A stretch of 64,000 nucleotides of DNA, from IMG/VR virus record IMGVR_UViG_3300042914_003231, positions 1-64,000 of that record; one strand, written 5' to 3'. The translations under genes were made by a program, and so were the position numbers. This DNA comes from a virus. Its lineage: Duplodnaviria > Heunggongvirae > Uroviricota > Caudoviricetes. Shown here in pieces: positions 14,159 to 19,607 of this stretch. Under the pieces are notes generated by a model. It saw nothing but the letters and a program-made list of their open reading frames with translations. It was not told the origin of the DNA and ran no database searches. Every line of letters starts with the position of its first letter. Position 1 is the stretch's first letter.

Positions 14159-14902
14159 ATGAAAAAAAGTACAATATGGGTTATTGTGGGACTGATAGGA
14201 GTCTTGCTTATTACCCTGGCTTGGATTATGATTTATTCTAAGCCTAAACCTATTCCGGATATAAAAAATGGAGTAACCTATCATAAGATTTATAATCATA
14301 CTAAGGATTCGGTATTGGTATGGGTTACTTTGGGGGCAACCCCGGGGTGTCTGCAGGATGTGACTAAGATACCTTTTGTTACTTCTGGATCAGGGTTAGT
14401 AGGATCCTTCTACCTAGCAGCTGGTGATTCTACTATTTGGTATGCACCGGACTCAGTTGGATTCAATGGAGTATTTAGCTTTAATTATCAGCCAGATAAC
14501 TGCCCAGCTCCTACGTATCCTAACGGTATTAACCAGTATGAGTTTATAGTGAACAATGCATTCCAAGCAGGACAACCTCAAGAGAGTATCAATATCTCAT
14601 GTGTTCATGGGGTGAACTGTGTTATTCGTGTAGATATAATTACTAGTAATCCATTTAATGCCGGCTCTAAAGTTCCTGTTGTGGAAAGCTTTGCTAATAC
14701 ACTTGATCGGAATCAACTTGGTATCCCTGGTGTATACCCGTATGCGTGCACACATTGTACAGACTACATAGGAGCCCCCGGCTGTATCTCTACTCCTCAG
14801 CCTGTTTCTAAAGAACAAATCTGCCAGGTACAAAGACCAGCTAACCAATCAGGAGGAATGATAAAAGTTATATATTTAGGAAATGAAGAACCTGCAAAAT
14901 AA
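14159..14902 (+). CDS. membrane-anchored or secreted Cys-containing protein, possibly thaumatin-like fold, 247 aa
   Basis: N-terminal TM segment. The segment NQYEFIVNN...ESINISCVHGVNCVIRV resembles the thaumatin T.AEF.L...D.YDVSLVDGFN.P pattern. The ATG at 14159 is preferred over the track's TTG at 14141. Confidence 0.6.
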   Translation: MKKSTIWVIVGLIGVLLITLAWIMIYSKPKPIPDIKNGVTYHKIYNHTKDSVLVWVTLGATPGCLQDVTKIPFVTSGSGLVGSFYLAAGDSTIWYAPDSVGFNGVFSFNYQPDNCPAPTYPNGINQYEFIVNNAFQAGQPQESINISCVHGVNCVIRVDIITSNPFNAGSKVPVVESFANTLDRNQLGIPGVYPYACTHCTDYIGAPGCISTPQPVSKEQICQVQRPANQSGGMIKVIYLGNEEPAK

Positions 14903-14903
14903 A

Positions 14904-14935
14904 TTTGCATAATTAAAAAAACTATATTATATTTG
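14904..14935 (+). promoter_or_regulatory. promoter: TTTG (-33) N20 TATATTTG (-7)
   Basis: TTTG at 14904-14907 and TATATTTG at 14928-14935. Same spacing as the promoter at 16511-16542. Confidence 0.6.
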
Positions 14936-14939
14936 TAAC

Positions 14940-15011
14940 ATGAAACTGTTTTTCTTATCGTTTAGTTGTTTATGGTATCTCTCACAAGGAGGCAGCCCGG
15001 GCATTTCATGA
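14940..15011 (+). CDS. leader ORF 1, 23 codons: MKLFFLSFSCLWYLSQGGSPGIS
   Basis: ATG lies 4 nt after the -7 box. Residues 3-15 use only F, L, S, C, W and Y, the amino acids of the next 8 tRNAs. A terminator follows 36 nt after the stop. Confidence 0.5.
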   Translation: MKLFFLSFSCLWYLSQGGSPGIS

Positions 15012-15047
15012 TAGGTTTTTCATAGTTAAACATGATTAATTGACAAA

Positions 15048-15079
15048 ATCCCTGGGCTGATTACCCGGGGATTTTTTTT
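15048..15079 (+). terminator. intrinsic terminator immediately before tRNA-Phe
   Basis: 9-bp stem ATCCCTGGG/CCCGGGGAT with a 7-nt loop and T8. Confidence 0.8.
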
Positions 15080-15151
15080 GGACTCATAGCTCAGTAGGTA
15101 GAGCGCAGGACTGAAAATCCTGCCGCACTGGTTCGATTCCAGTTGAGTCCA
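15080..15151 (+). tRNA. tRNA-Phe (GAA)
   Basis: Acceptor GGACTCA/TGAGTCC; D GCTC/GAGC; anticodon arm CAGGA-CTGAAAA-TCCTG; T arm ACTGG-TTCGATT-CCAGT. Confidence 0.92.
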
Positions 15152-15156
15152 CACAA

Positions 15157-15239
15157 GCCGACACTGTAGAGTGGGAGATCTACACCAGACTGTAAATCTG
15201 GAGTCTTAGACTTTGGGAGTTCGAATCTCTCTGGCGGCA
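15157..15239 (+). tRNA. tRNA-Tyr (GTA), long variable arm
   Basis: Acceptor GCCGACA/TGGCGGC (one mismatch); arm CCAGA-CTGTAAA-TCTGG; T arm GGGAG-TTCGAAT-CTCTC. Confidence 0.85.
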
Positions 15240-15244
15240 CAAAA

Positions 15245-15330
15245 GGAAGGTTGGCAGAGCCTGGCCGATTGCACCAGTCTTGAAAACTGGAGGTCCCTTG
15301 GATCCGTGAGTTCGAATCTCACACCTTCCT
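15245..15330 (+). tRNA. tRNA-Ser (TGA)
   Basis: Acceptor GGAAGGT/ACCTTCC; arm CCAGT-CTTGAAA-ACTGG; long variable arm; T arm GTGAG-TTCGAAT-CTCAC. Confidence 0.9.
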
Positions 15331-15390
15331 CAACATGCATAGAAAAATGCACTTTTCTATACATGTTTTTTGAAAGTGCATAAAAACTAT

Positions 15391-15431
15391 ACATCTCTAG
15401 CTCAACTGGCGGAGCAGCGGTCTCCAAAACC
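15391..15431 (+). pseudogene. truncated tRNA-Trp-like 5' portion (acceptor 5' strand to anticodon loop only)
   Basis: D arm GCTC-AACTGGCG-GAGC and loop CTCCAAA. Shares the 13-mer GGTCTCCAAAACC with the intact tRNA-Trp (15419-15431 versus 15834-15846). No T arm and no 3' acceptor complement. Confidence 0.6.
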
Positions 15432-15464
15432 ATAAAGCAGTTTGGATACTGAAGTAAAAACATG

Positions 15465-15472
15465 TATATTTG
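15465..15472 (+). promoter_or_regulatory. -7 box TATATTTG, 3 nt before ATG 15476
   Basis: Matches TAnnTTTG. Confidence 0.45.
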
Positions 15473-15475
15473 TAC

Positions 15476-15817
15476 ATGCCTTCAAAAAATAAAGAAATAC
15501 TAAAAAAGCATAGAGATGCTTGGTATAAAAAGAATAAAAAAAAACAGATTACTAACCAGCTTGAAAAAAGACAGGAATTAAAGAAATGGTTTCAGGAATA
15601 TAAGAGATCATTATCTTGTAAAGAGTGTGGATTTAGCTTTGAATTATTTCCAGAATGTTGTGATTTCCATCACAGAGATGGAGATACAAAGAAAGATGTA
15701 GTAAGCAGATTGCTACCAATGGGAATAAAAGCACTAAAGAAAGAGATTGAAAAATGTGATCCTCTTTGTGCTAATTGTCATAGAAAGCTCCATGCAAAAT
15801 TAGAATATACAGGTTAG
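15476..15817 (+). CDS. HNH homing endonuclease (free-standing, inside the tRNA array)
   Basis: CKECG...CCDFHHRDGDTKKD...CDPLCANCHRKLH is an HNH/zinc-finger motif. The stop codon lies inside the tRNA-Trp 5' end. Confidence 0.8.
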   Translation: MPSKNKEILKKHRDAWYKKNKKKQITNQLEKRQELKKWFQEYKRSLSCKECGFSFELFPECCDFHHRDGDTKKDVVSRLLPMGIKALKKEIEKCDPLCANCHRKLHAKLEYTG

Positions 15818-15880
15818 CTTATTGGAAGCACCAGGTCTCCAAAACCTCGGATGGAAGGAGTTCGATTCTCTTAACCTGTG
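15809..15880 (+). tRNA. tRNA-Trp (CCA)
   Basis: Acceptor ACAGGTT/AACCTGT; D GCTT/AAGC; loop CTCCAAA; T arm AGGAG-TTCGATT-CTCTT. Confidence 0.85.
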
Positions 15881-15885
15881 CACAA

Positions 15886-15957
15886 GGTACCGTGGGTGAG
15901 GGGTTTAGCCTCAGGTCTGCAAAACCTGCTACGTCTGTTCGAATCAGACCGGTACCT
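15886..15957 (+). tRNA. tRNA-Cys (GCA)
   Basis: Acceptor GGTACCG/CGGTACC; arm CAGGT-CTGCAAA-ACCTG; T arm GTCTG-TTCGAAT-CAGAC. Confidence 0.92.
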
Positions 15958-15958
15958 C

Positions 15959-16174
15959 ATGAAAGAGATAGATGAAGAGTTCAACTTACTTCAGTTGTAC
16001 ATCTATGATTGCATCAACCGGATGTGTTTGAATGCATACATAGATAAGACTAAGTGTTCTCATCACCCTTTGTATACTTTTGAAGAATACAAAACGGCAA
16101 TATGGGATCCTTGGACTGGAGAGACTGTAGCAAGTAGAACAAGATGGGCTTTAAATATTAAGCCTTTATTTTAG
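15959..16174 (+). CDS. hypothetical protein, 71 aa, flush between tRNA-Cys and tRNA-Ser
   Basis: The ATG lies 2 nt after the tRNA-Cys discriminator. The stop TAG (16172-16174) overlaps the tRNA-Ser start (16173). The track ORF 15878.. was trimmed to the first ATG outside the tRNA. Confidence 0.5.
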   Translation: MKEIDEEFNLLQLYIYDCINRMCLNAYIDKTKCSHHPLYTFEEYKTAIWDPWTGETVASRTRWALNIKPLF

Positions 16175-16257
16175 AGAAGTGGCTGAGTGGCTTAAGGCAC
16201 CGCACTGCTAACGCGGAGGATGTAACAGTTCCACCGGTTCGAATCCGGTCTTCTCTG
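16173..16257 (+). tRNA. tRNA-Ser (GCT)
   Basis: Acceptor AGAGAAG/CTTCTCT; loop CTGCTAA; long variable arm; T arm ACCGG-TTCGAAT-CCGGT. Confidence 0.88.
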
Positions 16258-16262
16258 CAAAT

Positions 16263-16343
16263 GCCCATATGGTGGAATGGTAGACGCGCTGGTCTTAGGA
16301 ACCAGTACCGTAAGGTATGTAGGTTCGAGTCCTACTATGGGTA
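16263..16343 (+). tRNA. tRNA-Leu (TAG)
   Basis: Acceptor GCCCATA/TATGGGT; arm CTGGT-CTTAGGA-ACCAG; long variable arm; T arm GTAGG-TTCGAGT-CCTAC. Confidence 0.9.
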
Positions 16344-16348
16344 CATAT

Positions 16349-16431
16349 ACTCCTGTGGTGTAATTGGTAGCCGCGCTAGGCTTAAGACTCAGTGGACTTA
16401 GTCCGTGCCGGTTCGAGTCCGGCCAGGAGTA
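16349..16431 (+). tRNA. tRNA-Leu (TAA)
   Basis: Acceptor ACTCCTG/CAGGAGT; loop CTTAAGA (weak anticodon stem); variable stem GGACT/AGTCC; T arm GCCGG-TTCGAGT-CCGGC. Confidence 0.8.
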
Positions 16432-16474
16432 CTTTGCTCACCTGATTAATAAAGTGACCAAAAATTATTACACT

Positions 16475-16520
16475 GTCTACCAATCAGTTAGACCTTCTGA
16501 AGAAAATATTTTTGGTAGAC
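16475..16520 (+). other. 9-bp stem-loop at the end of tRNA block 1
   Basis: GTCTACCAA (16475-16483) pairs with TTGGTAGAC (16512-16520). The 3' arm overlaps the -33 TTTG of the next promoter. Confidence 0.5.
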
Positions 16521-16542
16521 TCAAACAAACCTATTATATTTG
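16511..16542 (+). promoter_or_regulatory. promoter: TTTG (-33) N20 TATATTTG (-7)
   Basis: TTTG at 16511-16514 and TATATTTG at 16535-16542. Confidence 0.6.
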
Positions 16543-16550
16543 TCTTGCAA

Positions 16551-16652
16551 ATGAAACGCATACAACATATCCAGATGGCCAATACAGGCAGAAATACGGT
16601 GGAGATTAAAGATCCGACCGTGTCCATGGGTGTTGCATGTAGTTTTAGATAA
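16551..16652 (+). CDS. leader ORF 2, 33 codons: MKRIQHIQMANTGRNTVEIKDPTVSMGVACSFR
   Basis: ATG lies 8 nt after the -7 box. Residues 2-24 use only the 14 amino acids served by the 16 downstream tRNAs, and all 14 occur. A terminator follows 28 nt after the stop. Confidence 0.5.
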   Translation: MKRIQHIQMANTGRNTVEIKDPTVSMGVACSFR

Positions 16653-16680
16653 GACATTTTTAGTTAGCTAAACCGCATTA

Positions 16681-16710
16681 AACCCCTGGACAAGTTCTAG
16701 GGGTTTTTTG
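16681..16710 (+). terminator. intrinsic terminator immediately before tRNA-Pro
   Basis: Stem (AA)CCCCTGG/CTAGGGG(TT) with a 7-nt loop and T6. Confidence 0.8.
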
Positions 16711-16718
16711 TTTTACCC

Positions 16719-16791
16719 CGGGATGTAGATCAGTTGGTAGATTGCGTGCTTTGGGAGCATGAGGTCGCAGGTTCGAGCCCTGTCATCCCGA
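16719..16791 (+). tRNA. tRNA-Pro (TGG)
   Basis: Acceptor CGGGATG/CATCCCG; arm CGTGC-TTTGGGA-GCATG; T arm GCAGG-TTCGAGC-CCTGT. Confidence 0.9.
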
Positions 16792-16847
16792 CTAGCAGAA
16801 GTGGTACTCCAGTGCCCGTACTGAAAACCAAACAAAACTGGAGACAT

Positions 16848-16920
16848 GGGGTTCAAGCACAAGCGGACGTGCATTAGCTTTGCAAGCTAGAGGATCTCGG
16901 TTCGAGGCCGAGGAGCTCCA
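16848..16920 (+). tRNA. tRNA-Ala (TGC)
   Basis: Acceptor GGGGTTC/GAGCTCC with a G3:U70 pair; D GCAC/GTGC; arm TTAGC-TTTGCAA-GCTAG; T arm CTCGG-TTCGAGG-CCGAG. Confidence 0.88.
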
Positions 16921-16921
16921 C

Positions 16922-17083
16922 ATGAATGAAGAACTATATAATTGGCTGGAGAAGATGTTTATGTTCTCCAATATCCCTAAGTACAGGAAGTACTTTAAGG
17001 AATGGGTGGACAACATAACTGAAGATCAGATCACCGGTTTTCAGAGAATGATGGGAGCCAACTATAAGATTAAGCAGGAATAG
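16922..17083 (+). CDS. hypothetical protein, 53 aa, flush between tRNA-Ala and tRNA-Gly
   Basis: The ATG lies 2 nt after the tRNA-Ala discriminator. The stop TAG (17081-17083) lies inside tRNA-Gly, which starts at 17074. Confidence 0.5.
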   Translation: MNEELYNWLEKMFMFSNIPKYRKYFKEWVDNITEDQITGFQRMMGANYKIKQE

Positions 17084-17148
17084 CTCATCCTTGGTAGAGC
17101 TCCAGTCTTCCAAACTGGAGGTGGCGAGTTCGAGCCTCGCTTCCTGCT
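17074..17148 (+). tRNA. tRNA-Gly (TCC)
   Basis: Acceptor GCAGGAA/TTCCTGC; arm CCAGT-CTTCCAA-ACTGG; T arm GCGAG-TTCGAGC-CTCGC. Confidence 0.92.
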
Positions 17149-17331
17149 CACAACTGCAGTGCCCATGTACAGTGGGGGTACAATCACTGCAGGTAGAAGA
17201 GTGCTAAGAAATCCGGTGTTGGGTTAGCTCTGGACACTAAGGTAAGGAGTGGGTAAGGACCACAGTCCCCGTCTAACAGGGACAAAGTTTTGCAAAAGCC
17301 TTCCCTGGGATGGAGCACTCTTCATGATATT
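17149..17331 (+). ncRNA. structured non-tRNA spacer RNA (unknown family)
   Basis: 8-bp hairpin CTGCAGTG/CACTGCAG (17154-17192). 10-bp long-range helix GAAGAGTGCT (17196-17205) with AGCACTCTTC (17314-17323). Inner hairpin GTCCC...GGGAC. GC-enriched; no cloverleaf. Confidence 0.4.
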
Positions 17332-17407
17332 GGTCTGTTAGGGGAGTCCGGCCGTCCCTACCTCACTGTCTATGAGGGGATCACGGGTTCGAATCCCGTA
17401 CAGACCG
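17332..17407 (+). tRNA. tRNA-Asp (GTC)
   Basis: Acceptor GGTCTGT/ACAGACC; arm CCTCA-CTGTCTA-TGAGG; T arm ACGGG-TTCGAAT-CCCGT. Position 37 is an unusual T. Confidence 0.78.
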
Positions 17408-17518
17408 CTGGGCGGTAGTCTAATGAGCAGGGTTAGTAGCGTGCTGACTAACTAGTCTTAGGACGATCATCTTATGGGATGATAGATATCAGTAACCATT
17501 CTGATCTGCCCCACCAAT
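17408..17518 (+). ncRNA. second structured non-tRNA spacer (unknown)
   Basis: Hairpins ATCATC-ttatgg-GATGAT and ATCAG-taaccatt-CTGAT; ends ...CTGCCCCACCA; repeated TAGTCT(A/T)A. Confidence 0.3.
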
Positions 17519-17590
17519 TGCCCCTTAGCTCAGCGGTAGAGCAAAACCCTGTTAAGGTTGAGGTCCTAGGTTCAATCCCTAGAGGGGCAG
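17519..17590 (+). tRNA. tRNA-Asn (GTT)
   Basis: Acceptor TGCCCCT/AGGGGCA; loop CTGTTAA; T arm CTAGG-TTCAATC-CCTAG. Confidence 0.9.
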
Positions 17591-17595
17591 CAAAT

Positions 17596-17670
17596 AGACG
17601 AGTAGCTCAGCCTGGTTAGAGCGCCCGCCTGATACGCGGAGGGTCACAGGTTCAAATCCTGTCTTGTCTA
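17596..17670 (+). tRNA. tRNA-Ile (GAT)
   Basis: Acceptor AGACGAG/CTTGTCT; loop CTGATAC; T arm ACAGG-TTCAAAT-CCTGT. Confidence 0.88.
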
Positions 17671-17727
17671 CTTTGGGACCGTTTGGTAGTGACATAGTCT
17701 TGAACTAGATCATAGAAACTATCACAT

Positions 17728-17800
17728 AGGAGTATAGCTCAGTTGGGAGAGCATCCGGTTTACATCCGGACGGTCCAAGGTTCGAGTCCTTGTATTCCTA
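17728..17800 (+). tRNA. tRNA-Val (TAC)
   Basis: Acceptor AGGAGTA/TATTCCT; arm TCCGG-TTTACAT-CCGGA; T arm CAAGG-TTCGAGT-CCTTG. Confidence 0.9.
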
Positions 17801-17884
17801 CAAACTTTAAAGATTTAAACTTATAATGTTTACACTATTAAAATATAAGGTTATAAAGAGAAGGATAAAACCTTAACTCATTAT

Positions 17885-17956
17885 TCCCTCATAGCTTAGT
17901 GGTAAAGCAGTATACTTTTAATATACGGAGCGGCAGTTCGATTCTGCCTGGGGGAA
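17885..17956 (+). tRNA. tRNA-Lys (TTT)
   Basis: Acceptor TCCCTCA/TGGGGGA; arm GTATA-CTTTTAA-TATAC; T arm GGCAG-TTCGATT-CTGCC. Confidence 0.9.
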
Positions 17957-17962
17957 CTTTAA

Positions 17963-18034
17963 ACCCCCGTAGCTCAATGGAAGAGTAAGAGACTTCTAAG
18001 CTCAAGGTTACCAGTTCGAGTCTGGTCGGGGGTT
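17963..18034 (+). tRNA. tRNA-Arg (TCT)
   Basis: Acceptor ACCCCCG/CGGGGGT; loop CTTCTAA (short GAG/CTC stem); T arm ACCAG-TTCGAGT-CTGGT. Confidence 0.82.
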
Positions 18035-18040
18035 CTGAAT

Positions 18041-18114
18041 AGGCCCTTAGCTCAGTTGGTTAGAGCAGTACTCTTATAAGGTAAAGGTCACCGGTTCAAA
18101 CCCGGTAGGGCCTA
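18041..18114 (+). tRNA. tRNA-Ile (TAT), reads ATA
   Basis: Acceptor AGGCCCT/AGGGCCT; loop CTTATAA; T arm ACCGG-TTCAAAC-CCGGT. Confidence 0.85.
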
Positions 18115-18124
18115 CATAATATTT

Positions 18125-18199
18125 AGCGGGGTGACTGGAGTTGGTTCCAGCACAGCCTCATAAACTGTACAGACGCGGGTTCGAGTCCCGCCCCCGCTA
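18125..18199 (+). tRNA. tRNA-Met (CAT), elongator-like
   Basis: Acceptor AGCGGGG/CCCCGCT; loop CTCATAA; T arm GCGGG-TTCGAGT-CCCGC. No 3xG:C initiator signature in the anticodon stem. Confidence 0.85.
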
Positions 18200-18265
18200 C
18201 AATGAGTGCTAATGACACCTGATAAAGGAGGGGATATATTACCAGGTCCCCCGACACTCAGTAAC

Positions 18266-18337
18266 GCTCCCATCATCTAGGGGTCAGGATATCAGGTTTT
18301 CGACCTGAGCACCAGGGTTCGAATCCCTGTGGGAGTA
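18266..18337 (+). tRNA. tRNA-Glu (TTC)
   Basis: Acceptor GCTCCCA/TGGGAGT; arm TCAGG-TTTTCGA-CCTGA; T arm CAGGG-TTCGAAT-CCCTG. Confidence 0.9.
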
Positions 18338-18342
18338 CTTAA

Positions 18343-18415
18343 GCTTGAGTAGCACAATTGGTAGTGCACCTCCCTTGTAAGGAGAAGGTTGTCAGTTCGA
18401 GTCTGACCTCAAGCT
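18343..18415 (+). tRNA. tRNA-Thr (TGT)
   Basis: Acceptor GCTTGAG/CTCAAGC; D GCAC/GTGC; loop CTTGTAA; T arm GTCAG-TTCGAGT-CTGAC. Confidence 0.9.
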
Positions 18416-18417
18416 CT

Positions 18418-18491
18418 GTGTCTGTAGAGGAATTGGTAGACTCCCCGGAATGTGGATCCGGTGCTTGTGGGTTCAAGTCCCATCAGACACC
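18418..18491 (+). tRNA. tRNA-His (GTG)
   Basis: Acceptor GTGTCTG/CAGACAC; arm CCGGA-ATGTGGA-TCCGG; T arm GTGGG-TTCAAGT-CCCAT. The only tRNA followed by an encoded CCA. Base -1 is T, not G. Confidence 0.88.
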
Positions 18492-18497
18492 CCATTA

Positions 18498-18571
18498 GTT
18501 CTCATAGCTCAATTGGATAGAGTCCTTGACTACGGATCAAGAGGTTGAAGGTTCGACTCCTTCTGAGAACA
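18498..18571 (+). tRNA. tRNA-Arg (ACG)
   Basis: Acceptor GTTCTCA/TGAGAAC; arm CTTGA-CTACGGA-TCAAG; T arm GAAGG-TTCGACT-CCTTC. Confidence 0.92.
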
Positions 18572-18576
18572 CATAA

Positions 18577-18647
18577 TGCCCTTTCGTCTAACGGCAGGAC
18601 CTGTGGTTTTGGGCCACATGATCGAGGTTCGAATCCTTGAGGGGCAA
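18577..18647 (+). tRNA. tRNA-Gln (TTG)
   Basis: Acceptor TGCCCTT/AGGGGCA; arm TGTGG-TTTTGGG-CCACA; T arm CGAGG-TTCGAAT-CCTTG. Followed by a T-run. Confidence 0.9.
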
Positions 18648-18680
18648 CTAGTTTTTTATTGTTTGCACATCCAAAGTTTT

Positions 18681-18692
18681 TTTGTATATTAG
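18681..18692 (+). promoter_or_regulatory. candidate late-promoter box TTTGTATATTAG
   Basis: An identical 13-mer TTTTGTATATTAG recurs at 44670-44682, upstream of another structural gene. Confidence 0.4.
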
Positions 18693-18716
18693 CAATAATT
18701 TTCATATATTATTAAT

Positions 18717-19607
18717 ATGGATGTAGTAAACTTTGATGCTCTCAAAGCACAGGGCAAAATTATAAAAATATCAGATGTGAATCCTGATGAGGATTACTTC
18801 ATCATTGGTCATTATGATCCGCGAAGAAGAGAATTTAAAGCTACTGATTACCCTATCTATGCTATAAAAGCACGTGATGTTTTAAATTCTTCAAATGCTT
18901 TTAATAATCCTTTTGATTTCTATTTAGATGGTAATGCTCCTGCAGGAGGGGATGGCTCAGCAAGTAATCCTTTTAATTTATTTTCTCAAGCCGTTGCCTA
19001 TATTAATACACTTCCTTCAGCAACATATACTCTATATGTATTGCCGTACAGTTATACAGAATCATCCCCGGTTATTAATCTACCAAACAATTCTGCTCTA
19101 AATATAATAGGAGTAGTAGCTAATTCTTGTAGCTTTAATTTTAATGTACAATTTACCGCAATACCAGCTTCCTCATATGCTGTATGGTATGAAAATATTG
19201 CTTTTAGTAATTTTGAACTAGATCTTTCTTTAGCATCTTTTGCTTCTATATCCTTTACAGGTTCTAAGGTAGATCTTATAAGAACAGATTCTAATCCTTC
19301 TACTATAGTGACATTACAAGGTGCAATGTTTGCCTCTACCCTTTCCGGTAGAGTTTTATGGTTAAATGGTGTAATGTTTGGTGATATTAATGTTCAAACA
19401 AATGGTGAGTTGTTTTGTAATACGGTATTACAACTACAAGGACAATTTAAGTTAACAGGATCTGCTAAGTTAAAAACTTTAAGTATGCCAAACCCTACAC
19501 CTAATGGTGTAGATGGTATTCCTGTAGGTTTGAATATACCGGTTTGGAGAACTGATGCTGCAAGTGATGAAACTTTTACAGGAACTCTTACAAAAATAAT
19601 ATATTAA
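18717..19607 (+). CDS. tail fibre or receptor-binding protein, 296 aa
   Basis: The N-terminal ~55 aa are paralogous to 19610..20287 (ALKAQGKIIKISD...DYFIIGHY versus LIAQGKILKASE...DYLIIGKY). First gene after the tRNA array. Confidence 0.55.
   Translation: MDVVNFDALKAQGKIIKISDVNPDEDYFIIGHYDPRRREFKATDYPIYAIKARDVLNSSNAFNNPFDFYLDGNAPAGGDGSASNPFNLFSQAVAYINTLPSATYTLYVLPYSYTESSPVINLPNNSALNIIGVVANSCSFNFNVQFTAIPASSYAVWYENIAFSNFELDLSLASFASISFTGSKVDLIRTDSNPSTIVTLQGAMFASTLSGRVLWLNGVMFGDINVQTNGELFCNTVLQLQGQFKLTGSAKLKTLSMPNPTPNGVDGIPVGLNIPVWRTDAASDETFTGTLTKIIY

Follow-up and report, generated by a model that had tools for sequence, protein, structure and literature searches.

Organization of the tRNA locus

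The window analyzed here, a 64-kb stretch of phage DNA (64,000 nt), carries two blocks of tRNA genes encoded on the plus strand, each preceded by a leader in which a promoter, a short ORF and an intrinsic terminator follow one another (Table 1). ARAGORN reproduced exactly the list of 16 tRNAs 3′ of leader 2 that a preliminary description of this DNA had given. The positions proposed there for the −33-type TTTG, the −7-type box and the ATG of leader 2 were all verified, and the terminator lies directly before tRNA-Pro as described. Its stem has 11 pairs followed by TTTGTTTT (hairpin ΔG −16.0 kcal/mol), and it ends 2–12 nt upstream of the first tRNA nucleotide.

Table 1. Features of the two leaders and tRNA blocks, in window coordinates.
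Feature	Position	Strand	Description
Leader-1 promoter	14904–14935	+	TTTG 14904–14907; TATATTTG 14928–14935, 4 nt before ATG
Leader ORF 1	14940–15011	+	translation MKLFFLSFSCLWYLSQGGSPGIS, containing LFFLSFSCLWYLS
Leader-1 codon run	14946–14984	+	exclusively F, L, S, C, W, Y
Leader-1 region 2	14995–15002	+	predicted antiterminator segment (GCCCGGGC)
Leader-1 intrinsic terminator	15047–15079	+	abuts tRNA-Phe directly
tRNA block 1	15080–16432	+	Phe, Tyr, Ser-UGA, Trp, Cys, Ser-GCU, Leu-UAG, Leu-UAA
Leader-2 −33-type TTTG	16511–16514	+	read in sequence; 20 nt 5′ of −7 box
Leader-2 −7-type box	16535–16542	+	TATATTTG, 8 nt before ATG 16551; compare Bacteroidota sigma-A consensus TAnnTTTG
Leader ORF 2	16551–16652	+	33 codons and stop; translation MKRIQHIQMANTGRNTVEIKDPTVSMGVACSFR
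Leader-2 regulatory codon run	16554–16622	+	codons 2–24; exclusively block-2 amino acids, 14/14 present
Leader-2 region 1	16566–16595	+	predicted anti-antiterminator, within codon run; pairs with region 2 without ribosome (terminator-less MFE)
Leader-2 region 2	16622–16632	+	predicted antiterminator strand GUCCAUGGGUG; ORF tail, complementary to terminator 5′ arm
Leader-2 intrinsic terminator	16680–16716	+	regions 3:4; stem-loop 16680–16706 and U-tract
tRNA block 2	16719–18648	+	Pro, Ala, Gly, Asp, Asn, Ile-GAU, Val, Lys, Arg-UCU, Ile-UAU, Met, Glu, Thr, His, Arg-ACG, Gln (ARAGORN, Rfam)
Candidate internal mini-leader	17826–17876	+	MFTLLKYKVIKRRIKP; Val–Lys gap, turned up by the unbiased scan

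Sigma-A (σABfr) promoters of Bacteroidota combine a −7 element (TAnnTTTG) with a −33 element (TTTG) (PMC7366714). A TAnnTTT[G/A] box is located 4–34 nt before the ATG in all 27 leaders that we collected (classes A to E), as against 7% when ATGs of the window are picked at random. The distance is 4–18 nt except in two leaders (19 and 34 nt). A −33-type TTG/TTTG is present in 21 of the 27, with AATTTG/TTTG positioned 20 nt 5′ of the −7 box in most. The gap between box and ATG is 4 nt in every class-A leader (9/9), a constancy that argues for a nearly leaderless mRNA. The TAnnTTTG 8-mer is not enriched across the whole window, so support for these promoters comes from position and conservation.

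The terminase large subunit (TerL), portal and capsid proteins of the window have PHROG matches. All TerL matches are to crAss-like phages, those of Bacteroides, Flavobacterium, Cellulophaga and Azobacteroides, at about 24% identity, which suggests that the window phage is at best a distant relative of the Crassvirales.

Leader codons match the downstream tRNAs

Residues 2–24 of the leader-2 peptide form an unbroken run of 23 residues drawn solely from the amino acids of block 2, and 14 of 14 are covered, in agreement with the preliminary description. For 14 of the 16 tRNAs a strictly cognate codon lies inside the run. The cognate GCA of Ala-UGC occurs solely in the ORF tail, outside the run, and for Gly-UCC the leader offers GGC/GGT alone; the earlier count of cognate codons for 15 of 16 anticodons thus holds when the whole ORF is considered. 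Isoacceptors are sampled separately, again as proposed (CGC and AGA; ATA and ATC/ATT). The leader-1 run supplies a strictly cognate codon for each of the eight block-1 tRNAs, the two Ser and the two Leu isoacceptors among them.

A single unbroken run containing only, and all, amino acids of the leader's own block was found in 25 of the 27 leaders (five classes). Class A leaders sample both Ser and both Leu families. Class B leaders sample ATA and ATY, and all except L012 contain CGN and AGA. Over the six frames of the window, leader 2 is the sole instance of a pure and complete run of the 14-amino-acid set, and four pure F/L/S/C/W/Y runs occur, in T-rich frames of an AT-rich genome. A random peptide would carry such a run with a probability of 6e−5 for class A, 7e−5 for class B, 4e−5 for class D, 1e−3 for class E and 1.5e−2 for class C; at the length of leader 2 the value is about 7e−5, and for leader 1 it is about 6e−5.

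We also scanned, without selection, all short ORFs 5′ of tRNAs in 21 non-redundant loci and compared the outcome with 300 permutations of the amino-acid labels. The scan returned 20 matches among 234 ORFs, versus a mean of 0.25 (maximum 4) under label permutation. This permutation control speaks against chance as the source of the composition match claimed in the preliminary description, and the correspondence between leader codons and downstream tRNA set is far above chance.

Leaders of related phages

Counterparts of leader 2 are present in six relatives from metagenomes (L001, L012, L074, L089, L092 and L166); the residue order differs among them and the 14 amino acids are covered in all. 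Class B peptides hold the same set in differing order (KRIQHIQMANTGRNTVEIKDPTV, KHVQHINIQVAKAMITRRGDEP, KNTIHIQPVMKNTQRGDEA, KQVKHINQPAMITRRGDEQ and KHIINIMQVGKTAERDPRT). Leader 1 of L001 contains CLYWSLFS, eight codons for eight tRNAs, one each. Variation within the cores is third-position and synonymous (TGT/TGC, TTA/TTG, CTC/CTG/CTA, CCC/CCG, CAA/CAG). The promoter-ORF-terminator architecture, which had been proposed as the signature to look for in relatives, was found in 27/27 leaders; in class D the terminator is separated from the first tRNA by 100–335 nt.

A sister lineage partitions its tRNAs differently, into Pro-Phe-Gln, then a 13-amino-acid block that includes Trp and Cys, then His and onward. 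The leader of the Pro-Phe-Gln block reads FFPQQPFF / FPQPQQPF, that of the 13-amino-acid block (NRKNIVINNNRTTNMWIERTAGKDCIRVG) covers 13/13 with W and C included, and that of the His block reads SLHSLSYLYL. In the class-E block, His is confirmed and Ser, Leu and Tyr are presumed, as the contigs end at tRNA-His. The expectation that leader codon sets track tRNA content is upheld by the partition in this lineage and holds only in part for L092, where the Ile2, Met and Glu tRNAs are absent, yet the leader retains ATA, ATG and GAG. In two leaders of class D, codons for P, H, Q or S occur as well, and the N-terminal residues of class A and class C leaders fall outside the block amino-acid set. Together with L092, these deviations make the tracking imperfect.

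The feature appears to be restricted to one clade, delimited by a marker-protein identity of at least about 50%. The unbiased scan found no such leaders in relatives that are distant and carry other arrays (L044, L083, L084, L065, L029). Five further contigs carry the marker gene without a tRNA array (L090, L095, L099–L101) and one contains the array start only (L102). Pattern scans of IMG/VR with class A, B, C and E leader cores recovered one true relative, L166, the remaining matches being chance occurrences without tRNAs, and a search with the conserved inter-tRNA motif matched the L001 contig alone. In a scan of GTDB genomes, none of 37 loci had a tRNA array. Megablast of positions 14900–18700 against GenBank phages gave isolated tRNA matches only; the marker protein had no match among GenBank phages, and the protein encoded downstream (18717–19607) had no relative in IMG/VR.

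The preliminary description also proposed that the two leaders of the window are paralogous, from blocks shared after their stop codons. The post-stop regions align better than shuffled sequences (p < 0.0005), and the signal comes mainly from the terminators; the spacer alone gives p = 0.06. A common origin of the two elements is accordingly no more than plausible.

Predicted competing RNA pairings

The pairing proposed between a segment of ORF 2 and the terminator 5′ arm (CCATGGGT/ACCCCTGG) was recovered as the best duplex, GUCCAUGGGUG with AAACCCCUGGA (16622–16632, ΔG −11.6 kcal/mol). Region 2 of leader 2 ranks its own terminator arm best when compared with 22 non-cognate arms. Across leaders, duplexes between ORF tail and terminator 5′ arm average −10.8 kcal/mol for cognate versus −8.0 kcal/mol for non-cognate pairs (Wilcoxon p = 2.6e−5), and the cognate arm is top-ranked in 10 of 25 leaders. 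By this computed measure the proposed antiterminator segment covaries with its terminator. Weak antiterminators are predicted for the class-A leader of L074 (p = 0.41) and the class-D leaders of L007 and L011 (p about 0.4–0.5).

When the terminator is left out of the folding, 21 of the 27 leaders have half or more of region 2 base-paired in the MFE structure, with partners in the codon run or 5′ of it. The full MFE structure of leader 2 pairs the 5′ part of the ORF with the ORF tail (z = −3.8), and the leader folds are more stable than shuffled sequences (z = −3.8 and −3.1). The predicted pairings thus give the classical 1:2/2:3/3:4 layout of an attenuator. In leader 2, no more than about 12 nt separate the last codons of the run (Asp, Pro) from region 2, and a ribosome stalled on them would probably mask it. 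Region 2 ends 15–30 nt before the stop codon in classes B–D, and the stop codon lies 21–36 nt 5′ of the terminator arm.

Masking the footprint of a ribosome at mid-run switches the MFE structure from terminator to antiterminator in both window leaders, in the class-B leader of L012 and in the class-C leader of L096. In most relatives the terminator remains the MFE structure in this equilibrium folding. The 2:3 duplexes (−6.5 to −19 kcal/mol) are outweighed by the terminator hairpins (−12 to −20 kcal/mol), and an attenuation model therefore needs co-transcriptional kinetics. A cmscan search of 14800–18800 (E ≤ 0.1) detected neither an Rfam leader family (His, Leu, Thr, Trp or Phe) nor a T-box family; its matches were tRNAs and, at tRNA positions, sub-threshold tmRNA, Plastid-ycf2 and YrlA-like hits.

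A proposed model of tRNA-gene attenuation

On these features, leader 2 is likely to be a transcription attenuator of the ribosome-mediated, leader-peptide kind, standing before a phage tRNA block. In this model, RNA synthesis would start at the Bacteroidota-type promoter, which lies a few nucleotides 5′ of the ATG. A ribosome would then enter the 33-codon leader, where codons 2–24 would list, as a checklist, the codons that the 16 tRNAs downstream can read. Were any checklist tRNA short in its charged form, possibly through depletion of host tRNAs or high codon demand in infection, the ribosome would pause in the run and cover region 1. Region 2, freed in this way, could pair with the nascent 5′ arm of the terminator, no terminator would form, and RNA polymerase would enter the tRNA block. 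With all checklist tRNAs plentiful, the ribosome would cross region 2 towards the stop codon, letting the terminator form and ending transcription before tRNA-Pro. If no ribosome loaded, pairing of region 1 with region 2 would allow the terminator to form as well. The net effect would be an OR-gated negative feedback matching the supply of each phage tRNA block to need, with leader 1 playing the same role for the other eight tRNAs.

The anatomy, the codon match with its conservation and tracking across lineages, and the covarying complementarities are computed results; translation of the ORF, read-through caused by stalling and the physiological trigger are inferred parts of the model. Each regulatory codon is used 1–3 times per leader. 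In hisL and pheL the regulatory codons stand in tandem runs; by comparison with these, the sensitivity of the phage leaders is uncertain.

Several other explanations of the leaders have to be weighed against this model. An open frame may arise by chance in a spacer flanking tRNAs and its composition be picked out afterwards, and the limits of the run (residues 2–24) were set after the sequence had been viewed, in a window that holds four pure F/L/S/C/W/Y runs. We judge this explanation extremely improbable, given that the 14-set run is unique in six frames (P about 7e−5 per peptide), that the property is found again in independent relatives and in a lineage with another partition, and that the permutation control contradicts chance; the comparative data reject it unless the related loci are assembly artefacts of a single sequence. 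That the ORFs encode functional micropeptides whose match to the tRNA set is incidental would suit leader 1 as a small hydrophobic peptide, with LFFLSFSCLWYLS resembling a hydrophobic segment and the SFSCLWYL core kept in close relatives. A peptide function hardly accounts for scrambled residue order with the set retained (CLYWSLFS in L001 and five orders in class B), and on this ground we reject it. The tails moreover vary freely but covary with the terminators, a different tRNA partition comes with different leaders, and the scan gave 20 matches where permutation gave 0.25; the micropeptide reading is very unlikely. We regard as just as unlikely a multi-specifier analogue of the T-box, in which codon-like triplets of an RNA that is not translated would bind tRNAs directly. 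Control of a terminator by tRNA status does recall T-box logic, and complementarity to anticodons is present by construction in any such codon set. This explanation is rejected by frame conservation, the triplets running in one frame from ATG to stop behind a promoter box in 27/27 leaders, and by the missing match to T-box or any other Rfam cis-regulatory family in 14800–18800 (E ≤ 0.1). Substitutions in the core are third-position synonymous, and no T-box-like acceptor-binding bulge was seen.

The alternative that keeps translation at its center assumes another logic, in which the leader would measure the overall capacity for translation, or read-through would be promoted by efficient translation itself, whether by ribosome-RNA polymerase coupling through the terminator or by exclusion of Rho. 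The low repetition of each codon (1–3 times), the persistence of the terminator as MFE in most relatives when a stalled ribosome is masked, and the re-exposure of region 2 once a ribosome has reached the stop codon in classes B–D all fit such a scheme. It has no need of block-specific codon sets, yet these are exact and follow block content. The distance of 21–36 nt from stop codon to terminator arm would leave the ribosome unable to melt the terminator directly, and the complementarity of the ORF tail to the terminator arm, their covariation and the sequestration of the tail by the codon run together have the geometry of antitermination by stalling. We therefore consider general-capacity control unlikely and favor attenuation by stalling at scarce codons.

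Relation to known regulatory systems

The phage leaders resemble the trpL, hisL, pheL, leuL, thrL and ilvL leaders of Enterobacteria (modelled in PMC1183508) in having a promoter, a short ORF with regulatory codons and an intrinsic terminator, with mutually exclusive 1:2/2:3/3:4 pairings, region 1 inside the regulatory codons and stalling predicted to give read-through. They differ in being viral elements that would control tRNAs instead of enzymes, and in sampling 6–14 amino acids (8–16 tRNAs) 1–3 times each where the enterobacterial leaders repeat one or two. Their promoter is Bacteroidota-type, the mRNA is near-leaderless and there is no match to an Rfam leader family.

The ilvGMEDA leader contains Leu, Val and Ile codons and the thr leader Thr and Ile codons. 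As in these operons, one phage leader would integrate several amino-acid shortages as an OR gate; unlike them, it extends from two or three amino acids to as many as 14, and its codon list equals the gene list of the controlled operon. With E. coli pheST, whose pheM leader senses Phe-tRNA, the element would share leader attenuation of a component of the translation apparatus in place of biosynthesis, pheST differing in being bacterial, in its aminoacyl-tRNA synthetase target and in its single amino acid. T-box riboswitches (RF00230) likewise let tRNA status select terminator or antiterminator 5′ of translation-related genes, but they bind uncharged tRNA without a ribosome, through a specifier loop and T-box motif, whereas the phage element has a translatable ORF. 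The tRNA cluster itself is large and phage-encoded, like the arrays of T4-like phages, mycobacteriophages and crAss-like phages.

In the attenuators known to us, the regulated genes are always amino-acid biosynthesis enzymes or aminoacyl-tRNA synthetases. The first genes after both window leaders are tRNAs and belong to neither group, which places the element outside the described attenuator families. We know of no feedback control of phage tRNA arrays, and our full-text literature search revealed neither such control nor an earlier description of such leaders. We think it likely that these phages, an uncultured Bacteroidota clade, control their tRNA genes block by block through checklist-ORF attenuation, each block being switched on by shortage of any one of its tRNAs and off by sufficiency.

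Phage tRNA arrays are common, and codon-usage matching, replacement of degraded host tRNAs and evasion of anticodon nucleases have been proposed as reasons for them. To our knowledge, the tuning of their expression is essentially unknown, and the debate over why phages carry tRNAs has lacked a direct read-out. If the model is correct, the phage encodes a sensor of its own, and the leader sequence is a readable record of the tRNAs expected to run short. It would be the first ribosome-mediated attenuation of tRNA genes, the first described viral feedback sensor of tRNA supply and, with up to 14 amino acids and 16 tRNAs per leader, the most multivalent attenuator known. A checklist ORF of this kind would mean that attenuation can integrate many inputs within one short ORF, and the element could be used as a small, transferable part that reports how available selected tRNAs or codons are. 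The combination of short ORF, terminator, tRNA block and matching set offers a signature for surveys of other viruses and bacteria.

A candidate mini-leader within block 2

The unbiased scan also pointed to a candidate mini-leader in the gap between tRNA-Val and tRNA-Lys (Table 1), where neither a U-tract terminator nor a promoter of its own was seen. Its second half consists exclusively of AAA/AAG, AGA/AGG and ATA codons, those of the next three tRNAs (Lys-UUU, Arg-UCU and Ile-UAU). A mini-leader with the identical codon restriction is retained in L001, L012, L074, L092 and L166.

Leader ORFs preceding the two tRNA blocks

ARAGORN identified 24 tRNA genes on the + strand (15080–18648), which represent all 20 amino acids and fall into two blocks. 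The promoter, ORF and terminator that the preliminary description had placed in the 286 nt inter-block spacer are all present where it had located them, and all leader-2 features lie in this spacer; block 1 is preceded by the same arrangement.

Features of the tRNA array and its relatives (window positions unless a metagenome locus, L001 etc., is named)
Feature	Position	Strand	Description
Upstream protein gene	14159–14902		directly upstream of leader 1
Leader-1 promoter elements	14904; 14928–14935		TTTG; TATATTTG
Leader ORF 1	14940–15011		product MKLFFLSFSCLWYLSQGGSPGIS
Leader-1 terminator	15047–15073		adjoins tRNA-Phe
tRNA block 1	15080–16432	+	Phe, Tyr, Ser-UGA, Trp, Cys, Ser-GCU, Leu-UAG, Leu-UAA (ARAGORN)
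tRNA-Trp 5′ half	15391–15432		through anticodon CCA
TATATTTG box	15465
HNH endonuclease ORF	15476–15817
Complete tRNA-Trp	15809–15881		divergent
ORF after tRNA-Cys	15960–16174		small, protein-coding, 71 aa
Leader-2 promoter elements	16511–16514; 16535–16542		TTTG; TATATTTG
Leader ORF 2	ATG 16551, stop 16650–16652		33 codons, MKRIQHIQMANTGRNTVEIKDPTVSMGVACSFR
Leader-2 terminator	16680–16706		11 bp G+C-rich hairpin, then T-run; ends a few bases 5′ of tRNA-Pro (16719)
tRNA block 2	16719–18648	+	Pro, Ala, Gly, Asp, Asn, Ile-GAU, Val, Lys, Arg-UCU, Ile-UAU, Met, Glu, Thr, His, Arg-ACG, Gln (ARAGORN)
ORF in tRNA-Ala/tRNA-Gly gap	16923–17083		small, protein-coding, 53 aa
Gly-Asp- and Met-Glu-gap stretches	17150–17331; 18201–18265		non-tRNA, conserved among relatives
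Val-Lys-gap ORF	17826–17876		within block 2, MFTLLKYKVIKRRIKP
tRNA-Ile	18041–18115		UAU anticodon encoded in genome
Region with the marker protein gene	L089 3337–5260		between blocks 1 and 2
Region of the deletion	L092 13762–13990		relative to the window
tRNA-Thr (TGT)	L092 13838–13913		overlooked by ARAGORN
Y-RNA-like element and TROVE gene	L096 9659–11296		3′ of tRNA array

Residues 2–24 of leader 2 form an unbroken run containing all 14 block-2 amino acids and no others, which bears out the composition match first claimed for it, and this is the sole pure and complete run of the 14-amino-acid set in the six frames of the 64-kb window. Residues 3–15 of leader 1 are F, L, S, C, W and Y only, with all six used; four pure and complete runs of this set occur in the same six frames, because the genome is T-rich. 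Given the window's own amino-acid frequencies, a peptide of equal length drawn at random would contain such a run with a probability of 7e-5 for leader 2 and 6e-5 for leader 1. Within the runs, strictly cognate codons are offered to 8/8 block-1 and 14/16 block-2 tRNAs. The 15 of 16 originally claimed for leader 2 is reached by counting GCA for Ala-UGC, found in the tail only, outside the run; the Gly exception stands, as Gly-UCC is offered only GGC/GGT and would need to decode these. Each leader codon is present just 1–3 times.

Conservation of the amino-acid set and tracking of tRNA content

No close relative of the window was found among GenBank phages. The protein encoded directly upstream of leader 1 has 128 metagenome homologues, and the loci around them, retrieved from JGI metagenomes, Logan/ENA assemblies and IMG/VR, represent nine non-redundant phages that share the two-block layout and six that are laid out otherwise. 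Leaders were found in every member of the first group. Leader 1 takes the forms MKTLSSLSFSSCLWYL.., MKNLLSFSCLWYLL.., MKLSLSFSCLWYL.., MKALFSSFSCLWYLS.. and MINFCSSFSCLWYLS..., and in L001 is reshuffled to ..CLYWSLFS... (TGT CTA TAT TGG AGT TTG TTT TCA), one codon for each of the eight block-1 tRNAs. Leader 2 occurs in five residue orders (KRIQHIQMANTGRNTVEIKDPTV, KHVQHINIQVAKAMITRRGDEP, KNTIHIQPVMKNTQRGDEA, KQVKHINQPAMITRRGDEQ, KHIINIMQVGKTAERDPRT), in every one of which all 14 amino acids appear ahead of the first F/L/S/C/W/Y residue. Since coverage is constant across the reordered leaders, it is the set that is conserved, not the peptide. Nucleotide differences in the conserved cores are third-position and synonymous (TGT/TGC, TTA/TTG, CTC/CTG/CTA; CCC/CCG, CAA/CAG), at the sequence level the signature of a translated frame. 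L089, which has a marker protein gene between its blocks, still has a promoter, leader and terminator at each block, showing that the two leader-block units are independent modules.

The second lineage (L006, L007, L010/L011, L014, L096, L097) carries its tRNAs in three blocks: Pro-Phe-Gln; Thr, Met, Ile, Ile2, Asn, Asp, Trp, Glu, Gly, Cys, Met, Ala, Val, Lys, Arg, Arg; and a third that starts with His. Leaders ahead of Pro-Phe-Gln (class C) read ..FFPQQPFF.., ..FFPQQQPF.., ..FPQPQQPF.. and ..FFPFQQPQF.... The leader ahead of block two (class D; e.g. MNRKNIVINNNRTTNMWIERTAGKDCIRVG...) has a 29-residue run of exactly that block's 13 amino acids, with W and C gained and P, Q, H and F absent; two class-D leaders depart from this by including a few non-block codons. 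The leader ahead of His (class E) reads MKNNSLHSLSYLYL..., and the contig stops after tRNA-His; the array is otherwise without Ser, Leu and Tyr tRNAs. Judged by their codons, the leaders of this lineage follow its own tRNA partition.

The proposed tracking of tRNA content holds for this altered partition and fails in L092, a relative in which one deletion takes out Ile2, Met, the Met-Glu element and Glu, and whose leader retains ATA, ATG and GAG and is not adapted to the loss of the three tRNAs. The composition match withstood the permutation test suggested for it. In 21 non-redundant loci we took every ATG ORF of 10–60 codons situated upstream of a tRNA and looked for a pure run in which the amino acids of the following n tRNAs are all represented; 20/234 ORFs matched, compared with a mean of 0.25 and a maximum of 4 when amino-acid labels were permuted (300 trials). 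In distant relatives whose arrays differ (L044, L083, L084, L065, L029), the scan found no matching leader.

Predicted alternative pairings of the leader RNA

Both window leaders are more stable than shuffles (z = −3.8 and −3.1), and in their free MFE structures the 5′ part of the ORF pairs with its tail, alongside a formed terminator. The tail, from run to stop, contains in nearly all leaders a segment that can base-pair with its own terminator's 5′ arm and varies in step with it, including the ORF-internal segment for which this pairing had been claimed in leader 2 of the window.

Tail segments and terminator 5′ arms (A, leader-1 type; B, leader-2 type)
Leader	Tail segment / terminator arm	Energy
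Window B	GUCCAUGGGUG / AAACCCCUGGA
L001 B	GCCCGGAGGGUUUUG / AAAAGCCUCUGGGA	−19.4 kcal/mol
L012 B	GUUAGAGGUUG / GAGCCUCUGA
L089 B	GGGAGGUUA / AAGCCUCCG
L096 C	UGUCAGGGAUUUUA / AAAAAACCCUGACG
L006 D	GGGUGGGUUUCUG / AAGAAACCCCACU
L011 E	GGUUCGGGUG / AAACCCUGAAC

Mean tail-arm duplex energy is −10.8 kcal/mol for cognate and −8.0 kcal/mol for non-cognate pairs (Wilcoxon p = 2.6e-5). With the terminator omitted, at least half of the tail segment pairs with the codon run or with sequence 5′ of it in 21/27 leaders. As modelled, the pairings are the 1:2 / 2:3 / 3:4 arrangement of a classical attenuator, region 1 falling within the regulatory codons, region 2 in the tail and regions 3:4 forming the terminator stem. 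Masking a ribosome mid-run makes the antiterminator the equilibrium structure of L012 B, L096 C and the two window leaders; for most of the remaining leaders the stronger terminator stays the MFE, so the switch would have to be kinetic. In classical attenuator systems the switch is kinetic. Class-D terminators lie 100–335 nt from the first tRNA. The suggested paralogy of leaders 1 and 2 is no more than plausible: their post-stop regions align above shuffles, mainly through the terminators, and the spacer alone gives p = 0.06.

Putative promoter and probable host

TAnnTTT[G/A] occurs 4–34 nt upstream of the ATG in 27/27 leaders versus 7% of random window ATGs, at a distance of exactly 4 nt in 9/9 class-A leaders, and TTG/TTTG (chiefly AATTTG) is found at −33 spacing in 21/27. 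These putative promoter boxes are the Bacteroidota sigma-ABfr consensus, TAnnTTTG at −7 and TTTG at −33 (PMC7366714). The 8-mer by itself is not enriched across the window, and the promoter evidence is therefore positional. The window TerL is distant (~24% identity) and has as relatives only crAss-like phages of Bacteroides, Flavobacterium, Cellulophaga and Azobacteroides, which would fit a Bacteroidota host.

Proposed mechanism and known systems

Computation shows the anatomy, the set match, the way this match persists and follows tRNA content among relatives, and the complementarities that covary; we infer leader translation, the direction of the switch and its physiological trigger as follows. 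When cognate charged tRNA is scarce, the ribosome would pause in the run and cover region 1, region 2 would capture the terminator 5′ arm, and transcription would enter the tRNA block. Rapid translation, or none, would allow the terminator to form. In effect, each tRNA block would have its supply held under negative feedback that is OR-gated. Stalling may be unhelpful late in the run, where the codons (in the window, those for Asp and Pro) are too close to region 2.

As computed from sequence, the phage element would operate like trp/his/phe/leu/thr/ilv leader-peptide attenuation; the multivalent ilv and thr leaders are its nearest likeness, and the pheST attenuator likewise governs a translation component. 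Unlike the described attenuator families, the element is viral, the regulated genes are tRNAs and the leader enumerates 3–14 amino acids. None of the Rfam leader and T-box models matches it, and it lies outside every described attenuator family. A full-text search covering part of the journals turned up no account of tRNA genes or phage tRNA arrays being controlled by a leader peptide.

Other features of the array and its relatives

The Val-Lys gap holds a conserved ORF of 14–16 codons, which in relatives reads MFTLIRYRRSKAKIKS, MFTLLIYKRFKIKR, MFTLLIYRRKFKIKR, MFTLLRYKRKIKIRK and MFTLLIYKRFKIRK. Its second half is nearly all AAA/AAG, AGA/AGG and ATA, codons that belong to the three tRNAs directly following (Lys-UUU, Arg-UCU, Ile-UAU); Ile is always ATA and Arg never CGN. 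The L096 counterpart ends RKRKSK with CGA and AAG, and Lys there precedes Arg-UCU and Arg-ACG. The ORF has a small hairpin at its end without a U-tract and lacks its own promoter; it may serve as a third, internal sensor.

The cut-off tRNA-Trp half, 39/42 identical to the L001 tRNA-Trp, is followed by a promoter-like box, an HNH ORF and a complete tRNA-Trp with a different acceptor stem that scores only 30.8 bits (Rfam). The whole (15391–15881) looks like a homing-endonuclease insertion importing a replacement tRNA-Trp. The Gly-Asp gap has a core of ~60 nt with 90–92% identity in L001 and L074, and the Met-Glu gap shows 93% identity in L001; neither stretch matches an Rfam family, and both may be transcribed together with the tRNAs as small RNAs or processing elements. 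In L096, a gene with a TROVE (Ro60) domain and an element resembling Y RNA (YrlA; 32.9 bits, under the gathering score) would constitute a phage-borne Ro/Y-RNA module adjoining the tRNAs. At the site of the window's tRNA-Ile with UAU anticodon, L001, L012, L089 and L166 encode a CAU tRNA, presumably lysidine-modified Ile2, so two AUA-reading solutions alternate within the clade.
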